The notes beneath the pieces are model-generated. The model had not been told where the DNA came from. It made no database searches and worked only from the letters and a program-made list of their open reading frames with translations. Source: Fonticula-like sp. SCN 57-25 (lineage: Eukaryota). Taken from it: DNA of 62,173 nt. The translations under genes were made by a program, and so were the position numbers. The DNA lies in contig MEDX01000008.1 of the NCBI GenBank assembly GCA_001724245.1, positions 1 through 62,173 of the forward strand, read 5' to 3'. The stretch's first letter is position 1. The number at the start of each line of letters is the position of its first letter. Below, in pieces: positions 4,401 to 56,805 of the stretch.

Positions 4401-5151
4401 GAACTTTAGGAGGAAAGGCCCGGCGGGGAACTGCGCGGGGGCGAGCGGGCGGAACATGCGCATGTCGTACATCTTGACATAGGGGTCGGGGATGTACGCA
4501 TTGCCGCGCTGCGAGTAGCCGCACGTAGCAAGGTAGTAGCCCGTCACGTCAATGTCGGAAAGGCCCGCTGTGTGGGCCGTCAAGCGGTGCTCGATATCAA
4601 AGGAGCGCGGGTCACGGAACAGGACCTCGCCCGACGGCGCTCCGCAGACGACCAGCCGCGAGCGGCGCAGGACAGCAGTGTGCGATTCCGTTTCAATCTC
4701 CTTGATGACCTTTCCGCGCTCCGTATCGACAATGAGCATCTTATTCTGCAGACCGGCAAGAAGGTACTTGTTCTGGCCAGAGTCGATCGCGCACTGCAGC
4801 TGCTCCATGGCGGGCGTCGTCAGGCGCAGCCGCGGAACGCCGTTGCGCGTCGTGAGGCCGACGCCTCCTTCGGCGACGGTAAACACGCCCGCGGGATCTG
4901 GAACAATTTGGCGAATAGACGTCATGTGGGCTCTGAAAGACGTGTATCGCGAGCACGATGCGGCCGTATAGGAAGTCACATTACCCTAGACCGGCACGTT
5001 AGCGGTGACGAGCTCAATCTGTACGCTAATCAAGCCATACCTGCTCATTTCCGGTCCAGAACACTTCTGTCCGCAAGTCGAACGATGAAGCTGTCATTGG
5101 AAATGCATTGTCTAGGTCGCTGACCGCAGCCCACTCCATCCAGTCATCCAT
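1494..5151 (-). CDS. PAN2: PAN2 poly(A) deadenylase catalytic subunit (WD40 + pseudo-UCH + DEDDh exonuclease), multi-exon
   Basis: WD40 region (AHTAGLSDIDV, DPYVKMYDMR), YSKLGVEDFDF, CLACELGFLFRML, ALDAEFVS, IGHGLQQDFRII, THDSIEDSRTAL. Confidence 0.96.
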
Positions 5152-13520: not shown

Positions 13521-13787
13521 ATATTTCTTCTTTCGTTTATGCCTTACATAATTAAACATGAATTGAATAACCCGCCGTAGCTTCTTTCCTTTCTTTTCTT
13601 TGGCCCATTGGCGAGCCAATGTTGCGTTTCAAACCACCCTTATCCAGGTGATCCATTGTTGCGCAACACGCAGCGCACCGGCCCATCGATCCGTGTCCAC
13701 TTTCACTTTTTAAAACAAGCATTGTTCTCTCCGCATAGTTACATTCCATCGTGCGCGCATCCCGCACTTTGTGGTGACTGCGCGTCG

Positions 13788-16645: not shown

Positions 16646-19228
16646 TTACGTGTTTTGCGCGGCCGCCGGCTCGAAGCGGATGAACGCGCTAAACCTCTCG
16701 TGGCCAACCATCTTGGCGATCGTGGGATCCTTGATATACGCCGCCTTGACCGTGTCGCACGAGAAGGGCGTGTTGAGGTTTGTGTGGAGCGCGCGCCCCG
16801 CTCCGAGAAGGAACAGCAGATCAACGTCCTCTGCGACGCGAGCGAGATCCTTGTCCACGCGGAAGAGGTTGATGCAGACAGAATTCGTGCCGGTGGCGAC
16901 GCACGACAGCCGCCTGATGAGCATGAGTATCAACGAAAAAAGGACGAAATAGGAGGCGCACCCGCTGCACTTTGCGGCGGCAATAGTATGGTCGAGCGCA
17001 CTGGCACGATTTAGTATATCTTCCAGCTCGATGCACGTAATGTCGTCAGATGCCGGGTACGTGTTGGCAGCGAGGACAACGGCCGCGCCCCTGCCAATAA
17101 CGAGTTAGGGCCATAAAAAACATCGACATGGAACGTACAGCTTGATGAGGAATCGCGCGAGCGGCAGCGTGCACAGCACCACATCGAAACCCGCATTGTT
17201 GACAAAAATCATTACTTTTTTATACCGCGGCTCGGCCAGGAGACGCTCTGCGACGGCCACGACGGCGGCACCATGCACCGCGTCATCCTTCATGTTGGCA
17301 AGCAGCAGCGGCACGGGCGACTCCTGCTCGTAATACCGCGAGTTCCACTCGAACCGGTCGCCCAGCAGTAGATTGCTGACAGCCGCGCGGGCCTCGACGG
17401 TGCGGTCGCTGATCTTGTCATAGGCAGACAGAACGAGCGGCAGCACCTCAAGCGCGCGATCATTTAGGCGTGTCTTGAGCTCAACGACGGCGTCGTGGCT
17501 GATAAACTCTTGCATACATTGCTCCTGGAGGCGGAGAAGCAGTGGGACCGACAGCGTGCCGTACGCGCCGGGCTGAAGGCGGATGCGCCCCAAAATATCG
17601 CCGTACACGCTAGCAAGGTCGTATGTGAGGCGGCAAATAAGTGGGGTATATAGAAACGCACGTGCTAAACGCCTTTAGCTTGGAGTCAATGTTGGGGAGC
17701 GACTGCATGCAAGACCGAACGGCCTAGCGCGGAAGAGGGTGAGCAAGGGAACAGCAGCGGTTAAAGGAGACGCACCGAGGTGACCTGCGTGATCGTCTCT
17801 GTGAAAATATCCAACCACTGCTCGCGCAGCTCGGGGCTCTCCAGCGACACCGTGCTCGACACGTACTCGCTCGGCTTGGAAAGCAGCGGGAACGGGACCA
17901 GCAGCTCTGGCATGCTAGATCGCGACAGGCGCGTGAGCAACTCAAACAACAAAGCAGCATGTTCGCACCTGTCCAAGACGCCAAAGTAGTGCACGGGCTG
18001 CGCAGAAACGGACCTTGACCGCGAAAAGTTTTCCATAAATGAGCCGTACTGCTTTGAGCTGACTGTGTCCTCGCCCGCCAGCAGCGCGCCGAGGCAGCCG
18101 AGGAACCCGTCGTGCCGCAGGAACAGAGCTAAATAGAGTGTAAGTAACAGCAATGCCACACACATCGTGGGCGTACCTTTCATCTCGCCCTTGGACCAGA
18201 AATCCACACCATAGCTGATCGTCCGCATCGTGTCGGCGTGCCCGCGGATGAACGACCCGCCAAAGTAGATTGTGTTAATGTTGTAGTAGCGCGCATTCAG
18301 GTACGCAATCTGGCCAATGTTGTTGGACACCATGAGTAGCGCGCTCTTGCAAATGTCCTCTTGGTTTGCCGCTGGCCGCTTGTTCGAGTCGTTCTTTTGC
18401 CACACCTTTCCAAAACTACTGGCGATGGTCGACGCCTTCAGGCCAATGGACGGGTAGTCCGACCCGTAAATGTCCCCGACAAGCATATCCACATTCCGGT
18501 TGTCGCCGCGGCTCGACATCTCGAGCATCTGGTCAAAGTCCTTGCAGTCCGTGAGCAGGGAGAGCAAGCCCCATAATGTGCCGCCGCCAAGACTGGTACC
18601 GCTGACACGCTCAAACGACGTCTCGCTCGTGACCTACACCCGCTCCGTCAGCAAACCGATACAGTAAACAACTGCGAAAACCTACCTTTAGTATGCTCAC
18701 GCCCGAGCCAATGTTGACGAGCATGTAGGGAAACATGGTTCGTGGATCGCGCACTTCGCAAAAGTTTTGCGACAGGGTGCCCGAGTTGGCATCGCACGAA
18801 AAGACCTCGCTCGACACCTCGCGCAAAAGAAAGTTGAGCCCGCTGATCAGGCACATCATCTCGTCCTCCGGCTCTAGCCTGATGCCAAGCTCATCCTCAA
18901 ATAGTTTGCCGTACTTGTGAGCGCCGCCTCCAGTGGCCTTGACGACGGGCGACACACCCTTGCTAAGACCCTCCTCGACGAGCGGCCTCAAAAAGTCTAT
19001 CAACTCACCGATCGAGTGTGTCTGAAAGTGCTCAAAGTGCATCCGCCGCCCGGCATTGTTATGCTCGCCCTCGCGGCGCTGCAGGAGTACAACCTTTGAG
19101 AGTGAGCCGCCAAGGTCGATCGCAAAGCCAAACCCCGCCGCATGATCACCCTGATTCGGCAGGTAGATGTCCCTCGTCCCGGACGCGCTGTTCTCCAGCG
19201 GAGAAATGACGGCGCCTGAGAGGTTCAT
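16646..19228 (-). CDS. Type II pantothenate kinase fused to C-terminal DUF89/ARMT1-like domain (PANK4/plant PANK2 architecture)
   Basis: IDLGGSLSK, ATGGGAHKY, EDEMMCLISGLNFL, VNIGSGVSI, RVSGTSLGGGTLWG, DMLVGDIYG, FLRHDGFLG; tail IFVNNAGFDVVL, GRALHTN. Confidence 0.92.
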
Positions 19229-19528
19229 CGCTCACCGGGAATGGCAGGGCGCCGTGGTCCTGGGGTCCTGGCAGTGCGTCACCGTTCAGAGCTGGCAAGC
19301 GAGTATCGCCTGATACGAATTTGCCCTGATTCCGCCCCAGATTCGACTATGCCGAGCCTGGATTGCAATCAGAGCACGTGGGCAGGACAGGAGAGCACGT
19401 AAAAGCGCGGAAGCCGAGGTGGCAGCGCCAAAGGTTACAGCGATAAAGTTTATTATTAAAGCAGGGAATTGAAATGCGTCAGAGAGTACAGCGACCGGCG
19501 AAAGAGGTGCGGGCGAGGCGCTTTTCAC

Positions 19529-29568: not shown

Positions 29569-32500
29569 TTAAGGGATGTGCTGCCAGACGCGGTCGTCCC
29601 ACAGCTCAATCTTGCCGTTCGCCTTTAGAATCCGAATATTCGACGCGACGTTGACCGTCTTCTTTTCATTGTCGAGCATGCCGACCGAGTGGCCATTCCT
29701 GCACAGCACGTCCTGCCGCATGCCGATGAACGACAGCCCGGGCACGTCCGTGATGCGGAAGACGGGCGCGAGCTTGCGGGACTCGGGGTTGGCCACGCGG
29801 CGCAGCTCGCCAAAGGGAGTGATCACAGCCTGGCAAACGCGGCAGATCACCTTGTCGCCTTGCAGCCTGTCGAAACTGATAAGCAAGGACGAAAAAGGAA
29901 AAGGCCCCTCATCCGTACGTGCTAATGTATTCGTCCGCCAGGCGATCGTGCAGCGTTGCGACCTTGTCGGGGATCAGCGCCTTGTTCAGCGCCGCTGCAC
30001 AGAAATGAGTAACAACAACAGGGAAAAGGGCACGTACGGGGCTCCACAAAGCCCTCCGAGTCAGTGAGGCCGAGGGCGCGCAGCTTCGGGAAGAGGCTGT
30101 CCACCTCGTCGGGGACCGCCGGGGCGAGCGCCGCCGCCGGGGCCGGAGCAGGCGCCTCGTCCCAGTTGTCCGACGACCACTTGGCCAGGTAGTCCTTCTC
30201 GGCTATCGTGTGCGCGGCGCGCGGCTTGGTGATGAGGTCCAGGAGCCTTTGAACACGTCAGGAAACAGACTATGGCAGCTCAGGATGCGTACCATCTCTT
30301 CAGCTCGAGCGACTGGGCCATCATACCCTCCTGCGAAAACAGCTTGTGCATCACCATCTCCTCGAGGCGGTCGCGGATGCGATTGATGAGGTCGACGTCG
30401 CTGTCGCCAAAGTGCGCGTCAAAGATAAACTCGAGGTCGCGGCCGACTGCAGAGAAAAGACAAGTTAAACGTTGAAAATCAAGAAAAGGGACGCACGTCT
30501 CACGCCCGCGTATTTTGAATTGGTCGTGTCGGCAAAAAGCTCCATGCGTCCGTGTGAAAAGAGCATGCTGATAATGGTATGTGAGTATGCGACGCAAAAG
30601 ACGCAACATGGGCGCACCAAATGAGCGCCGGCAGCAGAGGGCGGCCTTCAATGACGGTGGTCTGCGACGCCATCAGGTTGTCGCCCGCCGCGGTGATGAA
30701 CGGCGTGATCAAAACATTGCAGTTGGCCGTCGACGGGTCGCGCGCAAGAGAGACAAAGTTGACCGACTCGGATTGAATCTGCAAAAGATGAGCCAAGGAA
30801 ACACAATGCAAACGGAAAACGTACCCGAACCGTCGCGCTCGCTTCCACACGTCGGAAGCGCAGCATGAAAGGGTACTCTAGCTCGTGGCCACCGATAAAC
30901 TCGCGCGGGTCTCGCATCGAAAAGCCCCTTTTCAAACCGTGAGTACGATAAAGGCATGACGGTACAACGCACCGCTCGTCGCGAGGGCCGAGGCGCATGG
31001 CGCGAAAGCGACGCCGCTCGGCAGACCACGCCCGGATCCCGAGGTAGACGGAGAGAGGGATCTCTGGCGCGAGAACCTTGCCGAGCGCAGTCTTTTTGTA
31101 CGTCCAGCGCTGGTTGTCCTCCTCGTTGGGCCCGCGCGGGTCAAACTCAATGTAGCAGCGGCTTCCCTGCGAGAAAACCTGCTTGACGCGGCCGGCGCGC
31201 TCAAAGAACCGGCCAATGTGACGCTCGACCTGCTGCGGGAATTGCTGGTTGCTACATGGCCGTTAGCAGCGAAAAACTATGCAAATGTACGGAACCTTTT
31301 AAGCACAATGGTGAAGAAGGGCTCGTAGTTGAGCTTGCGCGAGATGCCGGCGTGCATGGCGTATTCCATTCCTCTGGCGTCCTCCGCCTCGCTGACCAGG
31401 TAATTCGGAGTAAAGGCCGCGGCGATCATGAGCTTGAGCAGCAGCACGTCCGTGTCGGAGCGCTCAAAGAGGCGCTCGTAGTCAAGGGCCCACGTCGCGC
31501 CTGCCTTTGTCGTCTTTACCACGTGGTGCGCATCCAGATCAATCTACATAAAAGTCGCTGAGCACCAAAGAAAGCGCGGGCCTCCAAGCGTACCTTGCGT
31601 TCCGGGACGGGGATACCAAGCCCCTCGAGGCGGCGCCGAAGGTCCTTGAGCGTGTCCTGTACCTCGTTGAGCCTACGCAGCGGTTGGATTAGACGCGGCC
31701 TACGGCAGGCATCACTCTAAAACGTACTTTTGAGGGTTGAGGAACTCGCGACGGATCCATTCGCGCTCGCTCCGGCCGTCGAGCTGCTTCACCGCGCGGA
31801 GATGCTGCCACGTCTCAAAGGCGCGCATGGCTGCGATGACATCGCTCGACGAGTCGGACGCCCAGCGCAGCTTGCGCTGAAAGTGCTCAAAGTCCTTTTG
31901 GAATGGGCGCGCAAACACGCCCGTGCCGCTGGCTGAAAGGCACGCCGCCATGATGAGGGCCTCGTAGGACATGCCAAACGCAAAGCCAAACACAATCAGG
32001 CGGGCGATGCGAATGTCCACGGGGAGGGCCGCAAAGATGCGACCGAGCGGCGTGATCCTGCCCGTCGGGTCATACGTGACCTCGCGGCGGAACGTGACAA
32101 CCTCGCCGGTGGGATCCTGTGACAGCGCGCCTAGAAACGAGTGTGTGAGTTTACAAGGAAACAATAAACCAGCGCCCTGCACCTGCTTCCGTCAGGCGGA
32201 CGAGACTGCCGTCAATCGTGTGGATATTGGGCGCCTGCAGGGCGAGCTGCAGCACGTTGCGCGGGTCGCCGACGTCGAGCACCTTGACCTGCAGGACGAC
32301 GTGGTCGAGGGAGATGCGCTGGATCTCGGGCACGACCTGCTCGTTGATCTCGTGCTCCCAAAAGTGGGCGGGGACCATGCGGAAGCAGTGGCCGTCCTGG
32401 ACGCGGCCAGCACGACCCGCTCGCTGGCGCCCGGACGCGCGGCTAGACCACTGCAGGCGCAGGCCCTCGAGGTTGGTCTGCTGGTCGCAGTAGAGCTCCT

Positions 32501-35500
32501 TGACGAGGCCGAGGTCGATGACGTAGCGCACGTCGGGCACCGTGATGGAGGACTCGGCAATGTTGGTCGAAATGATCACCTTGCGCGTCCCGAGCGGCGT
32601 GCGGCGGAAGACGCGCTGCTGCTCCTCGCTGGTGAGGGTCGAGTGAAGCGGCAGGATCCACATGGACGACGTGTCCAGCTTCTCCTCGATGACATCAAAG
32701 AGCTCTTGGATCTCGCCGAGGCCGGGCAAAAAGACCAGGATGGCGCCAAGGTTCCGCGTGTTGCGCTCGTACTCGTTCGACCACTCGCCGCGATGGATCC
32801 GCTCGATGAGCTCAGTCAGAGCCTCAAACATCTCGGGCTTCACCTCGGGCGTCGAAATCAGCTGGCCGGGCAGCGCGCAGGGCGGGAGGGCGTAGAGGTA
32901 GCGGCCATTGTCCATCTTGTCGAGGTGGTGCACGGCAATGTGATAGAGGCGGCCCTCGACGTTGATGATCGGCACCTCGCCGGCCGTGCGGAACCGCTCA
33001 ACGGGGAGGCTGTTGTAGTAGGCCGCAAACAGGTCGCAATCGATCGTGGCAGACATCAGGATGACGCGTACTGTCGGGTTGATCATCAAAAGCTCGCGTA
33101 AAATGAGCAACACAAAGTCGGTATCGGAATCGCGCTCGTGAACTACGCACAAAAAAGACCGGTTAGACAGCTCGGTAGATAGCCAGGAAGGGCGCACCTT
33201 CGTCGATAATGATATGCGTGTAGGGGCGGAGGTTCCGCTGGTTGACGAGGCGCTGAAGCAGGACACCGGTGGTAACATACATGAGGCGCGTGACCCCGCT
33301 TGTGGATTGCTTGTCCATGGACACCTGGTATCCAACCAACCCTCCAACGGAAATACCGCGCTCATCGCACACGCTAGGAGCACGAGAGTGAATAAAAAAA
33401 CCAAAAAAGCGTCTGCGTACCGCTTTGCCACACTGATCGCGGCAATACGACGCGGCTGTGTGCAGATGATGTTGCACTTTACGTTGTTGGCAATGCAGTC
33501 GTCCAGAATATACTGCGGCACCTGGGTCGTCTTCCCGCTACCCGTACTTCCACTCACAATGGTAACCTGGTTGTTGGCAACGATCTGAAGGATGCGCTGG
33601 CGGTGCGCGACCACCGGCAGCATCTCCTCGTCAACATTGAGGTCGCTGCCCATCGCGGCATCACCAACGTCGGCGCCCTCTGGCAGCTCGCCAAAGAGGC
33701 GCGGCCCCTGGCGGCGTCGACGCGGGCGCCGACTCGCTTGCGACTCCTCCTCGGCCGGCGGCTCTTCGTCGGCAAAACCTTCTACGTCATCCTCGGGGAT
33801 ATAGTCCTGGAGCGGCATGGACTCTGGGTCGCGATTTGCAACGAAATCGCGGATTGCGTTGCTCATCGTCAGTCCGAGCGGGGCGCTGGTGTTCTGGGGG
33901 TCCAGGCTCACGCGACCGCGGCGCACGTTGAGCTCCTCCTTCTCGGACTCGTCCAGGACGGCGGGCCGCAACTCGCTGGCGTCCACGGTCTGCGTGATGC
34001 CTTCGTACGACTCGAACGTGACGGTGACGAGGCGGCCGTTTCCGCCCACCGCCTCCACGCGCGCACGCTCGTAGTGCTTGGCGCGGCCGGGGCGCGATTC
34101 GACGAGTTGGCCAACCTTGAAGCGGGCCTTTGGCGCCGCGTTGCTGGGGGCGGACGCCGCAAATTTGCGCAGGGCAGAGGCTGGGACCGTGTCGCTGTTG
34201 CCGTACTCGGGGAACGTGACGGTGACGAGGCCTGCCGCGGCGTCGACCGCGGTGACCGTGGCCGCGTACCACTCGCCGTCCCCGCCAAGCCACTGCGCTT
34301 CGCCTGACTCGCCGACGCTGGGCAGAGCCGGCGCGGCCTTGCGCCTAAGGTGGGCCATCGGCTCGACGCTCTCGTTCCCATACTCTGAAAAATGGACGCG
34401 GTAGCTCTGCCTATCGGGCATAACTTCCACAATTACGGCCGTGTACCACGTGCTATCTTCGCTCCAGCACGCCTCGCACTCGTCGCCAACCTTCCACACG
34501 GGCGCGTGGGCGGCGGGGCGCTGCTCAACTAGCGGACGAAGATCTGTCCACGACAAGCCGACCTGCTTGCCCGAGCCGTAAAACGTCGCGTAAAACAGGT
34601 TCATCTTGCCATCGATGCGCTCAATCTTTGCCTTGTACCACCGCTGGTCGGCAGGGTACCTGGCCTCGCAGTCATCCCCAACGCGCCACGTCACAGAGCC
34701 CCCAGGCGCTTCGAGCACGCTCGAAGAGGCCGCGGCGGGCTGGGGTGCCGGCTTCATCTTGGAAGCGTCTACAATGTCCGAGTTGCCGTACTCTGTAAAG
34801 TGAACAACGTAGCTAGACCCGTCGGGGGCTGCGGTCTGCACCATGGCGGGGTACCACTGGCCGTCCTCGCTCCACTGGGCGACGCAGGCATCGCCAACCT
34901 TCCACGTGGGCCGCGAGAGGCCGTCGGCGCTTTCGGCCTTGTCGGCGACGCGCAGCGAGGTGATGTCCACAACGTCCTCGTTGCCGTACTTGGGGAAGCG
35001 CACATGCGCCTGCCTGCCGTCTGGTGAAAGAGTGAGAAGAACAGCGGAATACCACGCGCTGTCCTCGCTCCACTGCGCCTCGCAAAGGTCGCCTTCGCGC
35101 CACGGCTGGTGAAGCTGCGACAAGGGAACAGGCTCGCGCAAGCCATACGCAGGAAACTTTACGATCGCCGCGTCGCCCTCAAACCGGTCGATGAGGCCGG
35201 GGTACCACAGGCCGTCGCCGCGCTTGGCAATACAGGGAGAGCCAACAGAGTAGCCCATCATGCTCGTGGGTGCCGCGGCAGCGCGCATGTCCTGGATGCC
35301 GACAATGTCGCGGTTGCCGTACTCGGTGAAGAGCACGAAAAACTGGTTCCCCTCCGGGGAAATGTTTTCAATTGTGGCTGCGTACCACACCCCATCGCTC
35401 CATTTGGCCTCGCACTGGTCGCCGACCTTCCACGCCGCACTGGCGGTCGGCAGGGAAGCAGCCATGGGGGCGGCCCCAGGAGCAGTCCCAGAAGGCGCCA

Positions 35501-37880
35501 GGGCATCAATTGTAACAGTGTCGCGGTTTCCATATTCGGTGAATAGAACCTGATACTGCGATCCCACTACCGACTCGATCACCGCGTCGTACCAAACGCC
35601 GTCCTCGGACCAGCGCGCCTGGCACTTGTCGCCAACGGACCAGCGAGGCGGCGCTACTGAGGAAGAGCTCGTGGGGAGAGCGGGAGCGGGGCTACCCTCG
35701 AGCGGGCGAAGGCCATCGACCGTTACAGTGTCGCGGTTGCCGTACTCGGTAAACAAAACGGAATACTGCGATCCCGATACCGACTCGATCACTGCGCCAT
35801 ACCAAACGCCGTCTTCCGACCAGCAAGCTTGGCACTTGTCGCCGACGGACCAGCGAGGCACCACCACGGAAGCGGCGGGGGCAGGGACAGATATAGATCC
35901 TCCCTCAAGTGGGCGAAGGCCATCAGCCGATACAGTGTCGCGGTTGCCGTACTCGGTAAACAAAACTGAATACTGCGATCCCGATACCGACTCGATCACT
36001 GCGTCATACCAAATGCCATCTTCCGACCAGCGTGCGCTACACGCATCTCCGACAGCCCAACGCGCCGGCTTGGAAGCGGCTGCCTGCGCGACCGGTTTGG
36101 CTGGCGCCGGAGGCTCCTTGACGGGAGGCAGCTCGGGGGTTAAAGACTGCACATGCCGTTGTCTTTCCGAATCCGTTGTTCCCCTCGGCAGCAGGGCGGA
36201 AGCCGGCAGCGTATCACGGTTGCCGTACTCGGTGAAAAGCACGGTAAATTTATCTCCGTCCACACTCTCAATAACGGCGTCATACCACACGCCATCCTCT
36301 GACCAGCAGGCAGAGCAGAGATCGCCGGCGGCCCAGTAGCCCTTCTTATCCGAGATGCCGGCGGACAAGGCGCGCATGCGGTCGGCGCCGACAACCTCAC
36401 GATTACCATAGTCAATGAACAGAACATGGTACTGGTCGCCCTCCACCTTTTCTACAACCGCCGTGTACCAGACGTCATCGACGGTGTAACGGGCCATGCA
36501 CTTGTCGCCCACGTTCCACAGGGAGCCGGAGAGCGACTGGCGGTTCTCGAGCGGCTGGATGCTCGTTACATCCACAGTATCCTCATTGCCATACTCGGGG
36601 AACACAACCCGGAACGACTTGCCTTCCTCGACAACCTCTTCAATCGTTGCGTCGTACCAAACGTCGTCCTGCGTCCAGCGAGCGAGGCACTTGTCGCCCA
36701 CTTTCCACGGAAGGCCCCGAATAGATTGCATCCCCACGACGCTGGAATTGCCATACTCTGTGAACAGCACGTCATAAAGCTTCTTGTTTGGCGAGACAGA
36801 GGTGACAATCGCCCTGTACCACACGCCGTCCTCGAGCCACTTGGCAACGACATGGTCACCTTGCCGCCAGGACGGTGGCTCCTTTGCAACCGCCTCGTCC
36901 ACTTTAACAGTGGCGGACGGTATGGCCAGCGCAGTGACCATGGAGAGAACACGGACTGCGTCGCCTCCAACCTCGTCTTCATTGCCATAGTCTGTGAAGC
37001 GGACTCTGAAGCGGTTGGAATCCGAGATGGCAATGATTTCCGCCTTGTACCAAATGCCATCTTCCGACCACCGCGCTTCGCAAATATCGCCCACAACCCA
37101 CTCGGGGGAAGCACGAACGGCGTCCGCCTTTACAATGTCAATATTACCATACTCCGAAAATGTCACAAGGTAGCGCCGGAGGGAAAGAATGCTGGTGATG
37201 GTCGCTTTGTACCAGACATTGTCTGTCCACCGCGCCTCGACCTTGTCATTGACCCTGAATTCGCCAAAAGGCTCCAGTGAAGCAAATCCGCCTCGCGGGC
37301 GCACCAACGAAAGGGGAACATAGTCTACCTGCTTTGCCTCCCAAAAAACCACGAGCCCTGACGTCTGATCCTTGGAGATCGATTCGAATCGCGCTGGATA
37401 CCAGCAGCCATCTGCCAGCCACAGCGCCTCTACCAGCTCGCCTACCTTGACAACTGAAACAATATTGTATTAGCAAACCAGGCAAAAGAAAAAGCACTGG
37501 GTACCCGTGCGTGACGGCCTTGCTGGGCGAATCTGGCTCGGTGGCACAACCGGCTTGCCTGCGTTGAGCAGGTTCACCGTCCAAATCGAGCGATCAGACG
37601 AGATCGCCGCGACAGTAGCCAGGTGCCACATCTCATTTCTAAATATCTGACACGCGCTGCCGACCTCTAGGCGACTCAGGTCCGCAGGTAGCGGTGCTGC
37701 GGTGCGCCGCTCTGGCTTGGCCCATGATCGAGGCGGCGTCGAAGACACGCCTCCATGCGGCGACGCAGGGGAAGGTGACGCTTTCGACTGCGACGGCGCT
37801 TCCGTCCGCTGAAGCCGAGCACGTTCCAGATCCCCTGGAGTGACAGGCTTGGGTGCGCGAGCTCGCCGCAAATCCGCCAT
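29569..37880 (-). CDS. Giant multi-Tudor DExH RNA helicase: 19 Tudor domains + TDRD9/Spindle-E-type helicase + candidate C-terminal Zn-binding domain
   Basis: Repeated WxVGDxCxAxWSEDxxWYxAxI...VxFxEYGN; helicase motifs GSTGSGKTTQVPQYILD, TQPRRIAAISVA, spliced DEVHER, MSAT, LVFLPG, STNIAESSITVPDV, QRAGRAGRV; HA2 GRITPLGRIFAALP; AAFTPNY. Confidence 0.9.
35514..36060. repeat. Three near-identical coding tandem repeats (~207-210 nt period) encoding Tudor domains 9-11
   Basis: TCGCGGTT(G/T)CC(G/A)TA(C/T)TCGGT at 35521, 35731 and 35938, each followed by TACTGCGATCCC...CCGACTCGATCAC. Confidence 0.85.
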
Positions 37881-43845: not shown

Positions 43846-46800
43846 CTACATGTTGTAGCAAACCTTGCAATACGGCTGCTTATCCCGCGAGTAGAAGCTC
43901 TCGTCCAAAAGGTTCTTCTTGCAGTTGTAGCAGTTGAAGTGGTGCGGGTGGTAGCGCTTTCCGAGCGCATACATGATCTGGGACGTCAGCCCCTCGTTGC
44001 AGACGCAGCACTTGAAGTGGGTGTTGCAGTAGAGCTGGCCCTCGAAGGTGAGGTACTGCCGGCCGGCGAGGCTGCGGCCACAGTCCTTGCACGAGAAGCA
44101 GCGCGTGTGCAGCTTCTGGTTGTTGTACGTGACGCTCTCGCCTTCGATGGGGCCGCCGCACTTGCCGCACCGGTTGCCCGCGCGCGACAAAAAGTGCTCG
44201 CGGCAGTACGGGCGCTTGGCCTCGTCGGTCATGAAGGAGCTGCTCAGCTCGCAGTTGCACTCGGTGCACGTGAAGCAGTTCTTGTGCCACTTGCGGCCGA
44301 GCGCCTCCACGACGCTCTCGTTAATCGTCTGGTTGCACTTTGCGCACGAGTACGTCGCGTGGTAGTCCTTTTCGCAGAAGAGCTCGCGGTCGTGGAAGAA
44401 GAACTTTTGGCCCTCGAGCGACGATGAGCATACGGAGCTGGCAAAGGGTTAGCTAAAAGCGGTCAAAAACCGATACTGCGTACCAGTTGAAATGCTCGGC
44501 GTGCCACTGGAAGCCGGCCCACGAGTGGAAGAGCGAGGTGCCAAGGTCATCACCGCAGCCGTAGCAGAGGTTCGCCTCCTCCTCGTCAAGAAGCTTGTTG
44601 ACGGATGCTGTGATGGCCTGGCAAAAGGGTAAGCAACAAGAGCGGAGCTGTGCATGTAAAGCGCACCTCGACATTGGACACGGCGTCCGGGATCTCCAGG
44701 GCGGTGAGATTCGTGAGATTGGCGCGACCGGCGCTCTGGGCCTGGGCAATGAGGTCGTCCACGCTGCTCTCCTGGACCGAGATCGTCGGCGTCGCGGCGA
44801 TCGGCGCGAGCGCCGGTGAGTCGCTCCCATCGGGAATCGAACCGACAATCGCGTTCGCGGCGTTCACAGCCTCGTCCAAGTCGGCGAGCATAGCCTCGAG
44901 CTTGCTCAGGTTCTTGCGCGCAATGGTCGGCTCGGCCGCCGACGAGGCAGCGGCGGCGGTCGCAGGTGTGCGCTTGAGCGTCGCCTGCTTCTGGTACTCG
45001 GGAAAGTCCGCCACCGGGATGGAGCCGTCGAGGGTTGCCTTCATCGGTAGGCCCACAATGGGCGTGTCGGGCTCGACGGGCGCCACGCCGCGGATAATCG
45101 AAAAGGTCGTCGCGGTCTTGTCGCGCGACGTCGGACGCTGCATGGTGGGGGACGACTGCAGCGTCTGGCGCTTGATGGACGACATGGCCGCGGGCGGCGG
45201 GCCGACTGCCCTGATGACCGGGCGGCTGGGAGCCGTAGCGGGCGCAGGGGTCGGCGCAACGTTGTCCGACATGACACGGCGGTGAGCGTTGGCCGCGAGG
45301 GGGGACTCGGGACCGCGGCCAGATTGCGGGGTGTACGGGCTCCGCGAACGGGCAATGTCGGCAGCCTGGACGTGGCGGTCGCGCAGCGTGTTCAGCATGA
45401 GCGCCAGACGGTCGTAGATGGGCCGGTTCTCCGTGTCGGTCTCGTCGATCACCTTGGCGCGGGCCATCTCAAAGTGCTGGAAGAGGCGGAAGCACTCGCG
45501 CGCATAGTCGGGCTTGCGCGAGGAGCCGCTGCCAGGCGGCGCAATGTCCCAGGGCAGCACGCTACGCTTCAGCTGAGCCACATGGCCGAGCTTGGGAATG
45601 GAAACCGCGTCAATGAAGACCTTGACGCGGTCCAAGTTGGCAAGGATCAGCGGGTTCATGTTGCGCATGTACTCCTCCTTGTAGCCGAACTCGACAAGAT
45701 TGGCGAGGTTCTGCAGGACCTTGGCGATCAGCGTGAGCGTGCGGGCTTGGGCGCGCGTCATGGGGTTGCTCCACAGGCTGAAGAGCTTCGGGCCCAGCAC
45801 GGCAGGGCAGAAGAAGCGGAGGAAAATGAAGCCCGAAACAGACACATACTTGGCCTGCTCGTTCTCGGGGTACTTGCTCGTCACCTTCTCGCGAATGTGG
45901 TAGAAGACGTCGCAGAAGGACCTAAAGGGCCGTGTCAGCGCTAAAAGCAAAGAACGGAGACGCTAAAAAGCAAACGCACTGGGGGCACTTGCTTGCCGAC
46001 GCGAGCACGATGTCAATCGTGGACGTGACGTAAGCCTCGAGGTTCTTCCAGTTCTTCTCCAGATCGTCGCCCTTGTTCAGGCGCATCGGGTCCACCTCGC
46101 ACGGATTGTTCTCCGTCAGGATGTTCTTAATGTGCGCGCTAAGCGTCTCCTGCAGGTAGGGGAAGCCAACCAGCTTCATGTAGACATCGATACCCTTTGA
46201 CGCCATCGAGTTGCCACGGAAGAGGGTGTTGACGTCGACTAGGGTGGGGGTGAGCACGAGCAGGAAAAGAACCATGAAAGTGCGCACTGGTAGACTCGAC
46301 TTCCTGGGAAACCATGTCGCAGAGAAAGTCCAGCGCCTCCTTGCTCTCGTCGTACACGTAGAGGAGCGTGCGCGCCGCCTCGTCGCGCTGGTTCGACCAG
46401 CGCCCAAGCTGGGTGGCCAGCAGGTAGTGGTTCTCCTTGGACAGGCCAATGAGATCTCTGTAGACGTCGCGGTTGAGAATAATCTCCTCCGAGTAGAGCA
46501 GACGCATGCGAACAGAGCCGCGAGACTGGTCACCGCGAATAGGGGAGGTGTCGGCCGGTGTCATCTGGAGGCGGCGGACAAACTGCCTAGCGATATTAAG
46601 GTCGGGCTTGAATTCGCGGCGCGTTTCCTTCTTGGCGTGCTTCTTCAGAATATTCTTGGCGGCCTTGAGACCGTCGTCCTTGCCCTTTTGCGTCGCAGGC
46701 GCGGGCTGGAGAATGTACCACTCGCTAACCGTGCACGCGTCCGGCAACTCGGCCACGTGGACGGTAAAATGGCCCATAAAGTCGTCGCTGCCAAAGCGGT

Positions 46801-47593
46801 CCCAGTCCCAGCAGCTGACGTGGAGCAGGCGGTTCGCAATGTCACCCTGGAACTGGCTATAGAGAGCGCGCGACAGAGTGAGCACACACGGCGGCCTACA
46901 GCAGCATATGCGTACAAGGTGAAGGTCTCGTGGTACTTGGGGTTCAGAGACTTGAGCACCACCTTGGTGTGCTGGGTCGACGCAACCTCCATGTCAGGGA
47001 AGACGTGGAGAACCATGTAGGGATCCGAAAAGCCGTTCGTGTCCTTGCTCACGAGGCCGCGCGCCGAAAGCACGCTGACCGTGAGCTTGTGGAGGCCGTC
47101 GGGCGTCTTTGGCGGATCGTAGGTGAGCTCGACGTTGACTTCACCCGAAACGGAGCCCTCGGTCTTGGCGGAAGACAAAGGAAACCACTGCTCGAACGCT
47201 GCCGAGCCGCGCCCGGCCAGGTACTCGCGCGAAAAGCTCACCTTACCGACGGGGGCGTCCTTGGTTGCGGCACCGTTCGAGTTCCACACAATGACGTCCA
47301 TGTTCTTGAAATCGGGGTTGAGCTGAATTTCGGTCGAGTCATCCCAGTTCGGCTCGCGCGAGTTCTCAACGGTCTTGGTCCTAAACTCTTCGCGGTGGTT
47401 GATCTGCACAACGGCGTACGGATCGCACGTCCCGGTCGCTGCAAAACGGAGGAAGCAAAACAAACGACGGTCAATACCCATCCTCGCCGATCGAGGTAAT
47501 CAAACGCGTACAAAGACCTTCGGGCTGCAGCTCCTTGCCCTCGATAATGCTGACGGCGAGCGTCAGCTCGCGCCGAGCCTCATCCTCGAGCAT
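43846..47593 (-). CDS. C2-C2-RasGAP with C-terminal LD-like motifs and four LIM domains
   Basis: C2A CDPYAVV..RTKTV....PNW; C2B SDPYMV, WDWDRFGSDDFMG; GAP LFRGNS, FLRFFCPAV.GP, KVLQNLAN; four LIM double Zn fingers. Confidence 0.9.
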
Positions 47594-48094
47594 GTTGTTT
47601 TTCCCAGGCTCTCCGCGGAGATCCCAGGTGGAAACGAGCGTGCAGTTGACGCAAAAAGAATCGACGGCGGGGTTGACTGATCAAATGAACCAATCACGAC
47701 CGTGGACCCTCCTAAATTCCATTGCCCGATAAGTAAGGAACCACTCCGTGGTACAAAACACACAACTCGGCCCAGTATTACAACGCAGAACGATCGCCGC
47801 CTAATCACCTTTTCTTGCTACAAGGCGTGGGCAGCCGGGTGGCGAGTGTAGGCGTCAACAGCGCAAGCGACACCAGCGACCAGTAGGTATAGAACCCGCT
47901 ATTCTTTACTGCAACAGAGCAATCCCACCTGGCTCGGAAGAAGCAAAACAACAATATGATAGTCAAAGGCTGATAGTCAAAAGTACCCAAATGGTATATT
48001 AAAACCCAACAATTATATCTATGGGTTTGTACAGAAAAGGGACTGCGCAAAGCGATACAATATAAACTTGAACTTGGAAAGGCTGCTGAGCGCG

Positions 48095-49410
48095 TTACTT
48101 GTCAGACGAGCCAAAGAGCGACCAACGTCCACGCGGCTTGGTGGTGGTCGCAGCGGGCGACGCCGGCTCCTCGCCCTCGGAATCCGACAGGGCGGGGCCG
48201 AGTTCCCAGCCGCGCTCGCGCGCAGCGACCACGCGGTCGGTGGCAATCTGGCGGGCCGTGGCGACCGCGGTCGTGAGAAGGCCGGCCCAGTGGTCGGCCT
48301 CGGCGGCGGTCTCGGTGGTGAACTGGTAGGTGCGCTTGTGCGTCACAAGCTCGAAGGAGACCTCGGCGGGCTTGCCGCTCACCTTTCCGCGAACAACGTC
48401 CGCCACGCTCAGAAGCTCGACCGAGTCGAGCGGCTCGGCAAGCTGCAACACGGCGGTGAGTATGGCAATGGAAGAGAGAAAAGAGTAAACGAACCGAGTC
48501 ATCCTTGTAGTACACAAGCTTGGACCCGCGCAGAACGAACCAGCGCTTCTTCCACGTCTAGAACATGCGAGTTAGGAATACTCGATATATAATGCTTTAC
48601 CCGAGGAAGCAGTACCTTGATGGTGCCGCCGCTCTTGTGGAGGAAGCCCTCCATCTCGACCTTGATCGGGTGGTCCTTTTCAAACTGCGACTGCTCAAGA
48701 ACCGGAATGGTCTCCTCGAACGCGCGGAACCACTCCTCGCAGTCGCTATCCGAGGGCGCCTGCAGGAAGTACGTGCGGCCGCTCACGTCGAGGTCGATTC
48801 GGTCGGCGCGGGTCTTCCACGCGCGCGCGCCCAAAAGCGACACGACGCTAAGCGGCGCCATTCCCTTCACGTTGACGTCCTCGTAGTAGCGGAGACGCGG
48901 AGTCTCGGTGCCGCCCTTCTGGAGCGTGAACCAACGACGCTTGATCGACTTGACGCTGCCACCCTGCTTGGTCAGGTAGCCCTGCTTCACAATAGTCTAT
49001 CCAGGCAACCATGTAAGTAAACGACCCAATTAAATAACAAGAAGGCGGCGCACCATCTCCGTCGTCGCGGCAGGGGCATCGGCCTTCTCGGCCGCCGCCT
49101 CGCCCGTTACGGGCTGCTCCGCCGGCGCGGCATCCTCAGACTTTGCCTCCGACGCAGCGTTCTCAGCCGGCGTCTCCGAAGCAACAGTCACAGCGGGCGC
49201 GGGGGCAGCAGCCTCTGCCTGGACCGGCTCGGAAACCTCTGCCGCAACAGGCGCCTCGGGGAAAGGCTCGGACGAGACCGCCTCAGTCGCCGCCTTTTCG
49301 CCCGCATCAGCGGCCGGAGCAACATCAACCTGAGCAGTCTCGGCAACAACAGTCTCGGCAACAGGGGCTGCCGCCGCCTCGCCGGTCACGACTTGCTCCT
49401 CGGGATTCAT
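48095..49410 (-). CDS. Tandem PH-domain protein with Ala/Glu/Pro-rich disordered N-terminus
   Basis: KQGYLTKQGGSVKSIKRRWF...LRYY...RTYFL...EEWFRAF; MEGFLHKSGGTIK-TWKKRWF...RTYQF...DHWAG. Confidence 0.85.
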
Positions 49411-52876: not shown

Positions 52877-55800
52877 TTAGAAAACATAGTCCAACTCGTG
52901 GCGCTGATAGTTGCAGTGGACGTCGTCGGCGATGCGCGGGTACGACGGCACCATGGCATCCTACAAACGAGAGTGAGCTATGCATATCGCCATGTAAAGA
53001 CAACGCACCTGCGACGCAATGTACATGCTGTTGTAAATCTTCCAGTAGATCTCGCGCACCTTGCGCGCGGGGTGGAAGAGCCCCTGCAGCGTGTAGCACA
53101 TGATGCGCGGGGTTCCAATGCACACGCGCAGCGCCTCGATGGCGTCCGTCATCGAGTTGATAACGTGCGGCGACGTCTCAAAGATATTCGGCCACACGTA
53201 GTTGAGCAGGTGCTGCATTGCGTCCTCGCGACCCAGGCCCACAACGCCGAGCGCCATGTCTAGCAACACACACGAACGATTAGCAAACATGCGAAAAGCA
53301 AAGCACATGAAAAGACGCACGCTTGACGACGGCGGCGGCGGTCTGACGGTGGACGGCATCTCTGTCGATCAGGGCGTCCTCGAGCAGGGGCGTGACGGCG
53401 TACACATAGTCCTTGCCCATCTCGCTAATGTACTCAAACATAAAGGAGAGCGACTTTAACACGCCGTTCTGGACGTTCATCTCCGGGACGCGGTACTCGT
53501 TCATGACCGCCGGGAGGACCGTGTAGGGCCCGCACGTCTCGGCCACGATGGCGATGGCGACCGTCGTGCACACGCGGTTGGTGCGCTCCTGGACCTTGAG
53601 GTTGTTGAGCAGCGCGGCGAGCACGTCCTGCGGGCCGATAGCCTTGGCGATGTAGCCAAAGGTGTTGACGGTCGCGCGGCGGATACCCTTCTTGTGCGCG
53701 TTGAGCAGCTCGAGCAGCTCAAAGCAGATGCGCATCCACTCGCGCGCGGGCACGAATTCAGCGCCGCGATCCGCAATACGGCCGACAAGGTCAATGCAGT
53801 TCTCCTGCACCTTTTCGTGACGGTTGCGGAGGATGGGCGTGAGCGCGGGGAGCAGCTCCTTGATCGAGGGCGTCATGCGCGTCATGCCGATGACGTTGAC
53901 GACCGCCTTGAGCGCGCCGAGAATCGAGCCCAGTACGTCGGGGTACTCCTCGCCAAGGTACTCGTAGAGGACTTGCCCGAGATTGGTCAGCAGCTTCTCC
54001 TCCTCACAATTGCGCATCACAACAGCAATGCGGGTGATGAGGTCGGCAGCCTGCTGGCGCACACTGGAAACAAAACGGCCGTCAGAACCAGAAAAAATGT
54101 CGCAAAAAAGGGCAGCGTACCGAGCCGACTTGTTGCGGAAGTGCCACAGGATCGTACTGCAGATAGAAAGGAGGTACGGCTTGGCGCGCAGGCCAATGGC
54201 GTTGATGACGACACCAAAGCCGTTGAGGATCACCTGCGAGTCCTCCGCCGACTGCTCCTGGAAGGCGTACAGCATGCCGTCCATCAGGCGCTCCTCGAGG
54301 CGCTGGTCAATGTCCGCCGTGCCGTTTGCCGTAACGACCTTTTCGATGGCCTCCATCACCATGCGGCGGTAAAGTTCGTTCTCGTCCTTGAGGTCGTCCA
54401 CGATGCGATTGATGATCTCAAAGCCGCCGACCTTGTGCGAGAGCTCAACCGTCGTCTCCACCAGCTGCTTTGAATTGCGCTTGTCCAGCGCCATTCTCCG
54501 CACCCAGAACGCCTTGAAAAAGTCATTGAGGATATGCGAGCGAATGTACTCGGCCTTGACGCCGTCAGTCGCGGCGCACTGCTTGATCACCTTTAGCACA
54601 ATCTTCTTCATCTCCTCGTCCTGCGAGTGGAACTCGCGAATCAAGATCGGCACGACCTCGTTCGTGTAGTACTCGGCGTACTCGGCATCCATAAGGGGGA
54701 TAATATAACCAATCGCCTTCAAAAAGGCGGCCAGGCCCTTGCCGCGGTGCTGGCGGATACCCTTCCAGAGCGGCTTGAGGACAACGTCAAACGACTCGAT
54801 ACCGTAGGGAGCCGCGGCCTCGGCGAGCGCGGCCACGCAGAGCGCCGTGATCGTGCGGACCTTTTGCTGCTCGTCCACGAGGCCATGCTGCACGATATCG
54901 ACGAGGTTCTTGAGATGCGGGAGGATGGCCGGGCCCATCAAGACGGCGATTTGCTGCACAATCTTGACACCAGTGTGGCGCGCCATCCACGACTTTTTGC
55001 TGATGCACACCGCCTTGAGGAAGGGGAGGAGGGCGGGGATACCCAAAGCCGATGCGACGACGGCAAAGGCGCGCGCGGTTGTGTTGCGGACATACTCGTC
55101 CGAGTGGTCAATATCCGGGCGCATGTTGGCAATCATGGTGGCGAGACCCGCGGCCTTGGCGAGGTTGGAGATAATCTCGCGACCTTCGACGCGCGCGTAA
55201 TAGTCTTCGTCGATGAGGAGGGGCTCGATCACGACGAGGATGTTGTGCACAAACGGGCGGACCATGTCATCGAGCTTGTAGAGCACGCGGTCGATAACCT
55301 TGACCATGAGATGGCGCTCCTGATCCTCGAGCTGCGGCGTCATGAGGATGGGCAGAATCTGATTGAAAAGCGGGCCGGGGCCAAACTCGCGCGCCATCTG
55401 CGTGATATGACGCAGGGCGACCTTGCGGATCGGCGGGCTGCCGTTCTTGATGCGCATAAGAAGCTTGTAAATGCGCAGGTCCTTGAGCTCCTCGGGCGAC
55501 AGGTCCTCCTCGCGCTTGTTCTTGAGCAGCTTGCCGTACTGCACGCGATCCTCGTCCTTGAGAGGGGTGCCGTCGGCCGCAGAGGATTCAATGGGGAGGT
55601 CAAAGTTGGGGACGCGCGCCTCCTCGTCCTGGAAGGCGAAACCCTGCATGCCAAGGGGCGTCGGCGTAGCAGCGAGCTTGCGCGACGGGGTGAGCAGCGG
55701 GACATAGTTGGACGGCGGCGTGAGGATCGTGTATCCGGTCGACGGCAGCAGCGCATCCAAGTCAGCATCGCTCATGGCCATGTTGCGGCGGTCAATATCC

Positions 55801-56805
55801 TGCTCCCAGCGGAGCGAATTCATCTGCTCCTGCGAAAGGTTTGTGACCATAGGGGTGGCAAGACCGGCCTGGATCAGCGGCGTCGCGCCTCCCTGACCCG
55901 ACATGACGGGCGTCTGGTCCCAGCGCGAGCGACGCTTTGAAGGGGTCTCGGACCCGTCAAAGCCTCCGCTCGCAACCTTGGGGGTCTCTCCCCAGCCGGG
56001 CGCGGCATCGGCGCCGCCCGACGTCGTCACCGGCGTCTCGTCCCAGCGATTGCGCTTGCGCGCAGGGGGCGCGGCAGCGTCATTGGCACTCGCAGAGGTG
56101 GGCGCCGACGCAGAAATAGAATCAGCGTGGATCGACGCGGCGAGCGGGCGGCTACTCCCGCCAGCCTTCTCCTCGGCCTCGCGCTTCTTCATTTGAATTT
56201 TCCTCATAATGTCGGCCTGTTCGCGCTCCAACTCGCGCTCCTGCATCACCTCCGCGTACGACCGGCTGTTGGCGTCGCCGTCGGCCTTTGCCGCAAAGGG
56301 ATCGGCGCGCGCGGGCGAAATGACCAAATTGCGACGGCGGGCGTGATAGTCATCCTCGCGCTCCGCGATCGTTTTGCGACGATAATCAGCAAAAACGTCC
56401 ACATCGCCGCCTCCCGTGCGGGCCTCATCAAAGACCTCCTTGGGCGCGGTGTACTGCCTCATGCGCGACTGCAGGGCATCCTCTGCATCTTCGCCCTGCC
56501 CGGCATCAATCGAAGTGGCATAATTGGACCGGTCCGACGAGCCATAAAGGTCCTTGTCAAACGTTCCAGCGGCGCCAAGCTGTATGAAAAGCAACATTGG
56601 AGAAGGGGAAAAAAGAAAAGGGCGACGTCAGCGAAATCGGCCATTGCGCAACGAACGAACGCACCTTGGTGGCCGTGGAGCCGTCCGCGAGGCGGCGCTC
56701 AGTCTCCTGTTCGCGTTGCTTTTGCAACTCGCGAATTTGTTCGTCGATATCTAACAGTGCGCGTTAGATTCTGTCTACCAGAGCTCGAGGGGACGCACTG
56801 CTCAT
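52877..56805 (-). CDS. SF3B1: Splicing factor 3B subunit 1
   Basis: RWDETP/RWDQTP ULMs, [61 protein letters not shown]. Confidence 0.98.

Follow-up and report, generated by a model that had tools for sequence, protein, structure and literature searches.

The 62,173-nucleotide (nt) contig MEDX01000008.1 of Fonticula-like sp. SCN 57-25 (GenBank assembly GCA_001724245.1), analysed over its full length and referred to below as the window, carries on its minus strand a gene of seven exons and six introns (43846..47593; stop codon 43846-43848), whose predicted product joins two C2 domains and a Ras GTPase-activating (RasGAP) domain to a tail with an LD-like motif and four LIM domains. With a probability of about 0.6, we regard this as one gene of an uncultured, deep-branching holomycotan, nearest to Fonticula in the tree of this gene, and as the lineage's GAP1-type RasGAP, in which the PH-BTK unit of the animal proteins is replaced by an LD-like helix and four LIM domains. 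The order of two C2 domains, a RasGAP with an intact arginine finger, a linker and four LIM domains had been described in an original prediction made from the letters alone; this order (by Pfam and regular expressions) and every element listed with it (by the gene model, Pfam and motif alignments) were found again at the same positions on the minus strand.

The gene model was built from the minus-strand reading and from stop-to-stop frames, after which the exons were joined and translated by script; the spliced coding sequence measures 3408 nt (1135 codons plus stop) and contains no internal stop codons. An in-frame stop lies upstream at 47681-47683, and the ATG at 47593 is the first one downstream of that stop. 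Exon 1 (47518..47593, ATG at 47593-47591) encodes 25 amino acids (aa) with the start of C2A, exon 2 (46916..47438) encodes the remainder of C2A and the first half of C2B, and exon 3 (46288..46856) encodes the second half of C2B, a basic spacer and the N-terminal part of the RasGAP region; the exon 3 region aligns with the homologue of Paraphysoderma from residue 314. The RasGAP finger loop lies in exon 4 (45980..46238), where the codon 46216-46218 (CGT) specifies the arginine finger R397, and exon 5 (44667..45921, 418 codons) contains the C-terminal half of the RasGAP region with the FLR motif (R511), a P/S/T/A-rich linker and both LD-like motifs. Exon 6 (44484..44617, 44 aa) provides the end of the linker and the N-terminal half of LIM1, and exon 7 (43846..44437) the C-terminal half of LIM1, LIM2, LIM3, LIM4 and the stop. 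The introns are, in order, 79, 59, 49, 58, 49 and 46 nt long; all six are bounded by GT..AG, with GTGCG or GTACG at five of the six donors and CAG or TAG at every acceptor. The intron that had been suspected at ~44610-44665 corresponds to intron 5 of the model (44666-44618).

Pfam was run on the in-frame translations exon by exon, and LIM boundaries were set by regular expressions on the spliced protein. C2 was matched in exon 2 (E 1.8e-24, two stretches) and exon 3 (E 5e-07); exons 4 (E 3.1e-11) and 5 (E 1.4e-17) matched RasGAP, and exon 7 matched LIM in four stretches (E 2.9e-44). The short exons 1 (25 aa) and 6 (44 aa) remained without a Pfam match when scanned alone, and no exon of the gene gave a PH or BTK match. 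The resulting order is C2A, C2B, RasGAP, a low-complexity linker of ~300 aa with the LD-like motif, and four tandem LIM domains. C2A (residues ~8-115; 47170..47572) spans intron 1 and is without the DxD loop. C2B (residues ~142-249; 46709..47091) spans intron 2 and has the acidic loop residues KD..SDPY and DWD..SDD, which are missing from C2A, are also found in sponge RASAL1, and are presumably calcium ligands. Complete LIM domains occupy residues 912-963, 970-1020, 1029-1080 and 1082-1132, LIM1 becoming whole only once intron 6 is removed; the cassette as a unit (residues 912-1132; 43858..44566) has inter-LIM linkers of 6, 8 and 2 residues. Regarding the catalytic residues, the finger motif TLFRGNS (R397) aligned to the finger loop of neurofibromin, and the FLR motif (R511) and the QNLANLVEFG block aligned to p120GAP. 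Because the arginine finger, FLR and the QNLAN block are intact, the RasGAP looks catalytically competent.

The N-terminal part had been assigned to the GAP1 type, an assignment borne out by alignments to animal GAP1, RASA3 and RASAL1 proteins that are colinear at 28-31% identity over ~580-680 residues (window residues 5-583); in the tree described below this part lies beside these proteins with moderate support (Shimodaira-Hasegawa approximate likelihood ratio test, SH-aLRT, 87, not starred). The animal GAP1 proteins (RASA2, RASA3, RASA4/CAPRI and RASAL1) likewise have tandem C2A-C2B followed by a RasGAP with the finger and FLR. As the prediction had it, they carry PH and BTK (PF00169, PF00779) where the window protein has LIM; in place of PH-BTK the latter has a disordered linker of ~300 residues, an LD-like motif and four LIM domains.

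DNA contigs from four sequencing runs (X1 to X4) match the window, parts of the stretch being without cover in X2, X3 and X4. Run X4 represents a variant strain, for which 40 of 61 differences are listed, 27 of those in model exons. Among the latter, 24 of 27 are synonymous and 23 of 27 fall at codon position 3; the other three replace S by T, V by I and A by G. In exon 5, 16 of the 18 listed differences are synonymous, as are all five listed for codons 819-835, around the LD-like motif. Exons 3-5, LD-like motif included, are under purifying selection. Intron 3 (49 nt) differs from X4 by eight clustered substitutions and two one-base indels. Upstream of the ATG, X4 has indels of 10 and 7+1 nt; since the 10-nt insertion lies at 47666, the stretch upstream of the ATG is non-coding. 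Two sets of contigs bridge introns 5 and 6, namely a 27.6-kb contig of X1, a run that may be the window's own source, and a 603-nt contig of X2/X3 (44121-44723) without any difference; X2 belongs to the same study as X1, and the X2 and X3 pieces are identical and look like one data set. Record 19 of X4 reaches only 17 letters beyond intron 5 into exon 6 and was not counted as bridging.

Other long X1 contigs match at 45524-45740 and 46172-46234 with 90-95% likeness, at the conserved RasGAP motifs only, and then diverge; they probably represent RasGAP paralogues or other organisms of the sample. Directly upstream of the RasGAP-LIM gene and on the same strand lies a tandem PH-domain gene (48098-48996, minus), and in some amoebozoan relatives a single chain has the order PH-C2-RasGAP(-LIM). 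The tandem-PH gene was considered as a set of extra 5' exons and rejected, given a stop at ~48095-48097, one splice that was tried and proved out of frame, and the 10-nt and 7+1-nt indels of X4 in between.

A phmmer search with exon 5 against 1.84 billion representatives yielded 3233 proteins at E <= 0.001. LIM domains, called by a hidden Markov model (HMM) built for this analysis, were present in 24 of the best 150 of these 3233 relatives of the RasGAP exon, and in 22 of the 71 that were at least 700 aa long. Pfam found RasGAP together with LIM in 22 of the 23 relatives scanned, the exception being P0250, in which no LIM was found; both domains were confirmed separately for the Paraphysoderma protein, and the 24th protein, P0360, was called by the LIM HMM alone. 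The best longer relative of exon 5 in a word-index search was a 1158-aa hypothetical protein of Paraphysoderma sedebokerense with C2, RasGAP and LIM (P0001), which is colinear with the window protein over RasGAP (38% identity, 331 aa), LIM (34%, 176 aa) and C2 (27%, 264 aa).

The named carriers of the fusion comprise Fonticula alba (H696_03440, the closest), Paraphysoderma sedebokerense (BKA69DRAFT_384241), Amoeboaphelidium occidentale and 13 chytrids, namely Thoreauomyces, Phlyctochytrium, Fimicolochytrium, Blyttiomyces, Synchytrium, Entophlyctis, Boothiomyces, Globomyces, Polychytrium, Polyrhizophydium, Rhizophlyctis, Batrachochytrium dendrobatidis (BATDEDRAFT_92146) and B. salamandrivorans. 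To these come two arcellinids, Pyxidicula (with an N-terminal PH domain) and Arcella, whose records stem from transcriptomes, so that fused RasGAP-LIM messages do occur in nature. Each fusion record bears the label hypothetical, uncharacterized or Ras-GAP domain-containing. With the E-value cut-off applied, a C1 domain precedes RasGAP in 11 of the 22 LIM-bearing proteins scanned; Pfam found none in the window protein or that of Fonticula, and C1 is therefore a subgroup trait rather than a family-defining one. The number of LIM domains in the family ranges from 1 to 4, partly as a result of truncated gene models. No LIM-bearing protein of Dikarya or Mucoromycota appeared in the top-hit lists examined, which are not proteome censuses. 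As judged from the predicted proteins, the fusion is shown to be a conserved holomycotan family of at least 16 species, with fungal, aphelid and Fonticula orthologues in a common domain order (C2-C2-(C1)-RasGAP-LIM).

The architecture had been described in the original prediction as one that was not recognised, and a search for RasGAP plus LIM had been proposed. With both domains in 24 of the 150 best relatives the architecture is not unique to the window; it did prove unfamiliar in that all members are uncharacterised and that no paper on the RasGAP-LIM architecture or on the function of a member was found in 8.4 million full texts, a collection that leaves subscription journals and supplements outside. 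Nor did a literature search turn up work on adhesion proteins of Fonticula with a bearing on this gene. What is new here is a GAP1-type RasGAP with a LIM tail, unannotated in about 20 public proteomes; its domains, and the idea of a GAP-LIM fusion, are known.

Among the library matches of the RasGAP exon, third place behind the window's own fragment and the Fonticula protein is taken by the entry P0250/P0399, a pair of Joint Genome Institute (JGI) metagenome proteins (2020 and 3614 aa) that combine RasGAP (three stretches) with SibA-like Ig and bacterial-type cadherin-like repeats, an architecture of adhesion repeats and RasGAP.

A quick maximum-likelihood tree was computed from 36 RasGAP proteins (735 columns, midpoint root). 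A single kept column lies beyond the RasGAP region of the window protein, and the LIM domains therefore do not drive the tree. The window protein pairs with that of Fonticula (SH-aLRT 99, starred), to which it is 41% identical over 598 columns, and the other holomycotan LIM proteins form one clade (SH-aLRT 99, starred). Window and Fonticula join this fungal LIM clade together with one LIM-less Logan protein (SH-aLRT 88), and the holomycotan group adjoins animal RASA3/RASAL1 with moderate support (SH-aLRT 87-88, not starred). The LIM proteins of the arcellinids fall together with amoebozoan C2-GAPs (SH-aLRT 100). When all LIM-bearing GAPs, a group named post hoc, were forced into one clade, the likelihood was 25 log units worse (approximately unbiased test, p-AU 0.012). 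As a single clade of LIM-bearing GAPs is thus rejected, the RasGAP-LIM fusion probably arose at least twice, the arcellinid fusions being apparently independent.

Among the neighbouring genes, SF3B1 (53283-56627, minus) forms a single frame of 1115 aa; among the matches listed other than the window's own record, its best one is 65% identical (fungi), those of animals reach 59-62%, and Fonticula is not among the 120 listed. Such unusual divergence suggests a lineage without sequenced close relatives; taken with the Fonticula pairing in the RasGAP tree, it is indicative of a deep holomycotan of which no near relative has been sequenced, plausibly an amoeba of the Fonticula or nucleariid kind. 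The samples in which this metagenome contig is best matched are bioreactor, wastewater and aquatic metagenomes. An uninterrupted frame of 1772 aa (32154-37469, minus) contains numerous Tudor/SMN-Tudor repeats (Tudor E 5e-100) together with a Helicase_C match at the C terminus. Its product seems to be a large helicase with multiple Tudor domains and calls to mind the Tudor proteins of animal germline or small-RNA pathways, here in a holomycotan-like genome. PAN2 (2702-4985, minus; WD40 and UCH_1), a multi-exon gene for a protein O-mannosyltransferase (PMT; 13581-16340, plus) and a gene for a pantothenate kinase (Fumble; 17764-19231, minus) are eukaryotic housekeeping genes of the ordinary kind and share the short-intron structure of the RasGAP-LIM gene.

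Regarding the tail, the best match among solved structures was paxillin LIM2-3 (7qb0, E 1.7e-15), followed by Lhx4 (5e-15). The Atlas returned 'Putative paxillin' (0.95) and, by structure, paxillin-like, Hic-5 and FHL clusters, all of which are to be read as leads only. A word-index search with the LIM exon gave seven matches among 135 candidates, led by a LIM protein of Rhizophlyctis at 28%, and did not place the LIM class. When compared LIM by LIM with the Fonticula protein (P0249), the diagonal scored 140, 189, 99 and 112, LIM3 against Fonticula LIM2 scoring 109, and the 6/8/2 spacing is common to both; a positional correspondence was also found to the RasGAP-LIM protein of Thoreauomyces. 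In layout the tail is paxillin-like; in sequence it is only loosely so.

Two amphipathic motifs in exon 5 had been taken for paxillin-like LD motifs. The first, KLEAMLADL (residues 816-824), fits a relaxed pattern, its LEAMLADL (residues 817-824; 44877..44900) being the one place where L[DE]x[LM]LxxL occurs in the protein and departing from LDxLLxxL by E for D and M for L; the second, VDDLIAQA (residues 863-870; 44739..44762), lies outside the pattern. The pattern, picked after the motif had been seen, arises in 0.7% of 5000 shuffles of the window protein. The Fonticula protein has a strict LDxLLxxL at residue 1263 (0.7-1.4% of shuffles), likewise in the pre-LIM linker, 67 residues before LIM1 as compared with 95 in the window protein. 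Among the 20 RasGAP-LIM proteins tested, these are the only two with the pattern, and a chytrid paxillin-like control, the 21st protein scanned, is also without it. A single-sequence AlphaFold2 model of exon 5, used solely for helix positions, placed helices at residues 806-836 and 863-883 in an otherwise unstructured linker.

A further comparison concerns the LIM proteins that bind tensed actin. The testin class is counted among them as well. According to two reports, such binders belong to the paxillin, zyxin and FHL classes and have at least three LIM domains, a conserved phenylalanine and linkers of 7-8 residues (bioRxiv 10.1101/2020.03.06.979245, 10.1101/2020.03.06.980649). The window protein has the tandem array of at least three LIM domains. 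After the second CxxC, phenylalanine is the ninth residue in LIM1 and LIM4 and the eighth in LIM2, and tyrosine is the ninth in LIM3; we take the ninth residue to be the position of the critical phenylalanine of the strained-actin binders.

Several of the results weigh against the reading of one gene with an LD-like helix and a paxillin-style LIM tail. The splicing of intron 5, by which the linker is joined to the LIM exons, is deduced from homology, and retention of this intron would lead to a stop in the frame at ~44586 and to a LIM-less protein. DNA continuity leans on a contig that is possibly from the window's own source and on one 603-nt contig of the same study. The gene model could be an artefact, the RasGAP gene ending in or before intron 5 and the LIM exons belonging to a separate small LIM-only gene or to an alternative transcript, situated immediately downstream and on the same strand, and the exon-6 frame does have upstream Met codons within exon 5. 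Such an artefact seems very improbable to us, given that the 49 nt between exons 5 and 6 leave no room for a promoter, that intron 5 resembles the other introns (GTGCGC donor, CAG acceptor, 49 nt), that, read in the frame of exon 5, the X4 differences at codons 819-835 are synonymous, that Fonticula shares both the position of the LD motif and the 6/8/2 LIM spacing, and that RasGAP and LIM share a chain in 24 library proteins, which stem from annotations made independently and from two transcriptomes.

The remaining contrary points concern the tail. The LD pattern, which was defined post hoc, is missing from the other 18 RasGAP-LIM proteins tested, and Pfam did not find the Paxillin region in the window protein. 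The exon 5 model behind the helix positions is poor (mean predicted local distance difference test score, pLDDT, 42). Single LIM domains match ALP, FHL2 and PINCH about as well as paxillin, and the lead of paxillin over Lhx4 is marginal. A LIM-by-LIM comparison came out negative: no LIM1-4 diagonal was obtained against the Rhizophlyctis paxillin-like four-LIM protein, a weak test in that the matrix is without animal paxillin. The claim of a paxillin-like tail is thus upheld for the layout (four LIM domains at the C terminus, preceded by an LD-like motif) and is not supported for LIM1-4 orthology. As the cassette has positional orthology to its RasGAP-LIM relatives and none to the chytrid paxillin-like protein, its derivation from paxillin is not demonstrated. 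Finally, only one inter-LIM linker (8 aa) falls within the 7-8 aa given in bioRxiv 10.1101/2020.03.06.980649, the other two (6 and 2 aa) lying outside it; the count runs from the final zinc ligand of one LIM domain to the first Cys of the next, a convention that may differ from the paper's own. Because the linker rule fails in two of three cases and the position of the critical phenylalanine is a putative one, the tensed-actin reading is weaker than the general reading of an actin or adhesion anchor.

The protein may be compared with further known systems. The paxillin class (paxillin, Hic-5, leupaxin and fungal Pxl1) resembles the tail of the window protein in having an LD-type motif before four C-terminal LIM domains, whereas the window protein has one pattern-level LD motif, linkers of 6/8/2 rather than of uniform length, and a tail joined to an enzyme. 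The arcellinid RasGAP-LIM proteins share C2, RasGAP and C-terminal LIM in one transcript but have one or two LIM domains, in some cases with an N-terminal PH domain, and belong to a separate clade. In Capsaspora, a paxillin-like four-LIM protein carries a Rap-GAP domain (Co_06505T0; PMC3305314); like the window protein it unites a small-GTPase GAP and LIM domains in one chain, and it differs in having a RapGAP fold and substrate. Coupling of RasGAP to paxillin through separate proteins has been reported for tyrosine-phosphorylated paxillin, which binds p120RasGAP (PMC2173105), and for the Dictyostelium RasGAP IqgC, which enters ventral adhesion foci seconds after paxillin B, stabilises them and is absent from them in paxB-null cells (PMC12871552). 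In animals and Dictyostelium the coupling is one between interacting proteins, whereas in the window protein it is covalent.

From the domains, a function can be proposed. The C2 pair, from what is known of the family, would place the enzyme on the inner membrane leaflet, and with the full acidic set in C2B this placement may be calcium-triggered. The RasGAP would switch off GTPases of the Ras family, and Rap may be a substrate too, because animal GAP1 members are dual Ras/Rap GAPs. The LIM cassette and the LD-like helix would hold the enzyme at actin-rich adhesion or contractile structures, such that Ras/Rap-GTP might be extinguished locally where the cell grips or pulls, with adhesion lifetime tuned and protrusion kept elsewhere. 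That the protein goes to adhesions or tensed actin, and that its host is amoeboid or filopodial, we only infer.

The fusion could also be real and the LIM tail serve another purpose, be it targeting to a polarity site or the cytokinetic ring, or an autoinhibitory or partner-binding fold-back on the RasGAP. The family comes mostly from walled chytrids, in which the zoospore, where one exists, is the sole crawling stage; the 6- and 2-aa linkers depart from the strained-actin rule, and the LIM-by-LIM comparison with the chytrid paxillin-like protein found no paxillin orthology. Fission yeast Rga1, Rga3 and Rga4 carry a RhoGAP domain, and their LIM domains, two only, stand at the N terminus; they too unite a small-GTPase GAP and LIM domains in one chain, with a GAP fold and substrate other than those of the window protein. 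These three are named among the LIM proteins of fission yeast, where Pxl1 is found on the constricting ring (bioRxiv 10.1101/2020.03.06.980649). Against a role of this kind stand the LD-like motif in window and Fonticula, the restriction of the family, as far as the top-hit lists go (no Dikarya or Mucoromycota), to lineages that have a naked stage, be it amoeboid or a zoospore, and the fact that the nearest LIM classes, paxillin and FHL, are both reported mechanoresponders (bioRxiv 10.1101/2020.03.06.979245). We consider a tail that is no adhesion or tensed-actin anchor to be unlikely.

The main substrate might also be Rap rather than Ras, in which case the protein would be an adhesion-disassembly factor like RASA3 or RapGAP and not a terminator of Ras signalling. 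We consider this less likely than not. The window protein is a tree neighbour of animal GAP1, of which RASA3 is described as a dual Ras/RapGAP whose depletion enlarges focal adhesions through Rap1 (PMC12871552), and Capsaspora joins its paxillin-like LIM domains to a Rap-GAP domain (PMC3305314). Specificity, however, is not assignable from sequence, and the catalytic motifs are those of a canonical RasGAP.

Only tentatively can a wider history be drawn, in which an ancestral opisthokont C2-C2-RasGAP gained PH-BTK in animals and the LD motif with four LIM domains in Holomycota, so becoming, within a single polypeptide, a force- or adhesion-gated off-switch for Ras/Rap. This switch would have been kept in naked crawling or swimming cells (Fonticula-like amoebae, aphelids, blastoclads and chytrid zoospores) and lost with walled, non-motile life, and the arrangement would have arisen again in arcellinids and, with RapGAP, in Capsaspora.

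That crawling cells switch off Ras and Rap in the proper place is usually credited to transient binding between adaptor and GAP; paxillin and p120RasGAP, paxillin B and IqgC, and RASA3 in focal adhesions are cases in point. The conservation of a natural fusion between a GAP1-type RasGAP and paxillin-style LIM domains argues that this coupling is old and under selection. With enzyme and anchor held in one gene, it offers a simple handle, and relatives are in culture or genetically tractable (Spizellomycetales, Fonticula). The hypothetical proteins of some twenty genomes are brought together as one coherent, as yet unnamed family, which adds a marker for the loss of the amoeboid machinery along the fungal stem.

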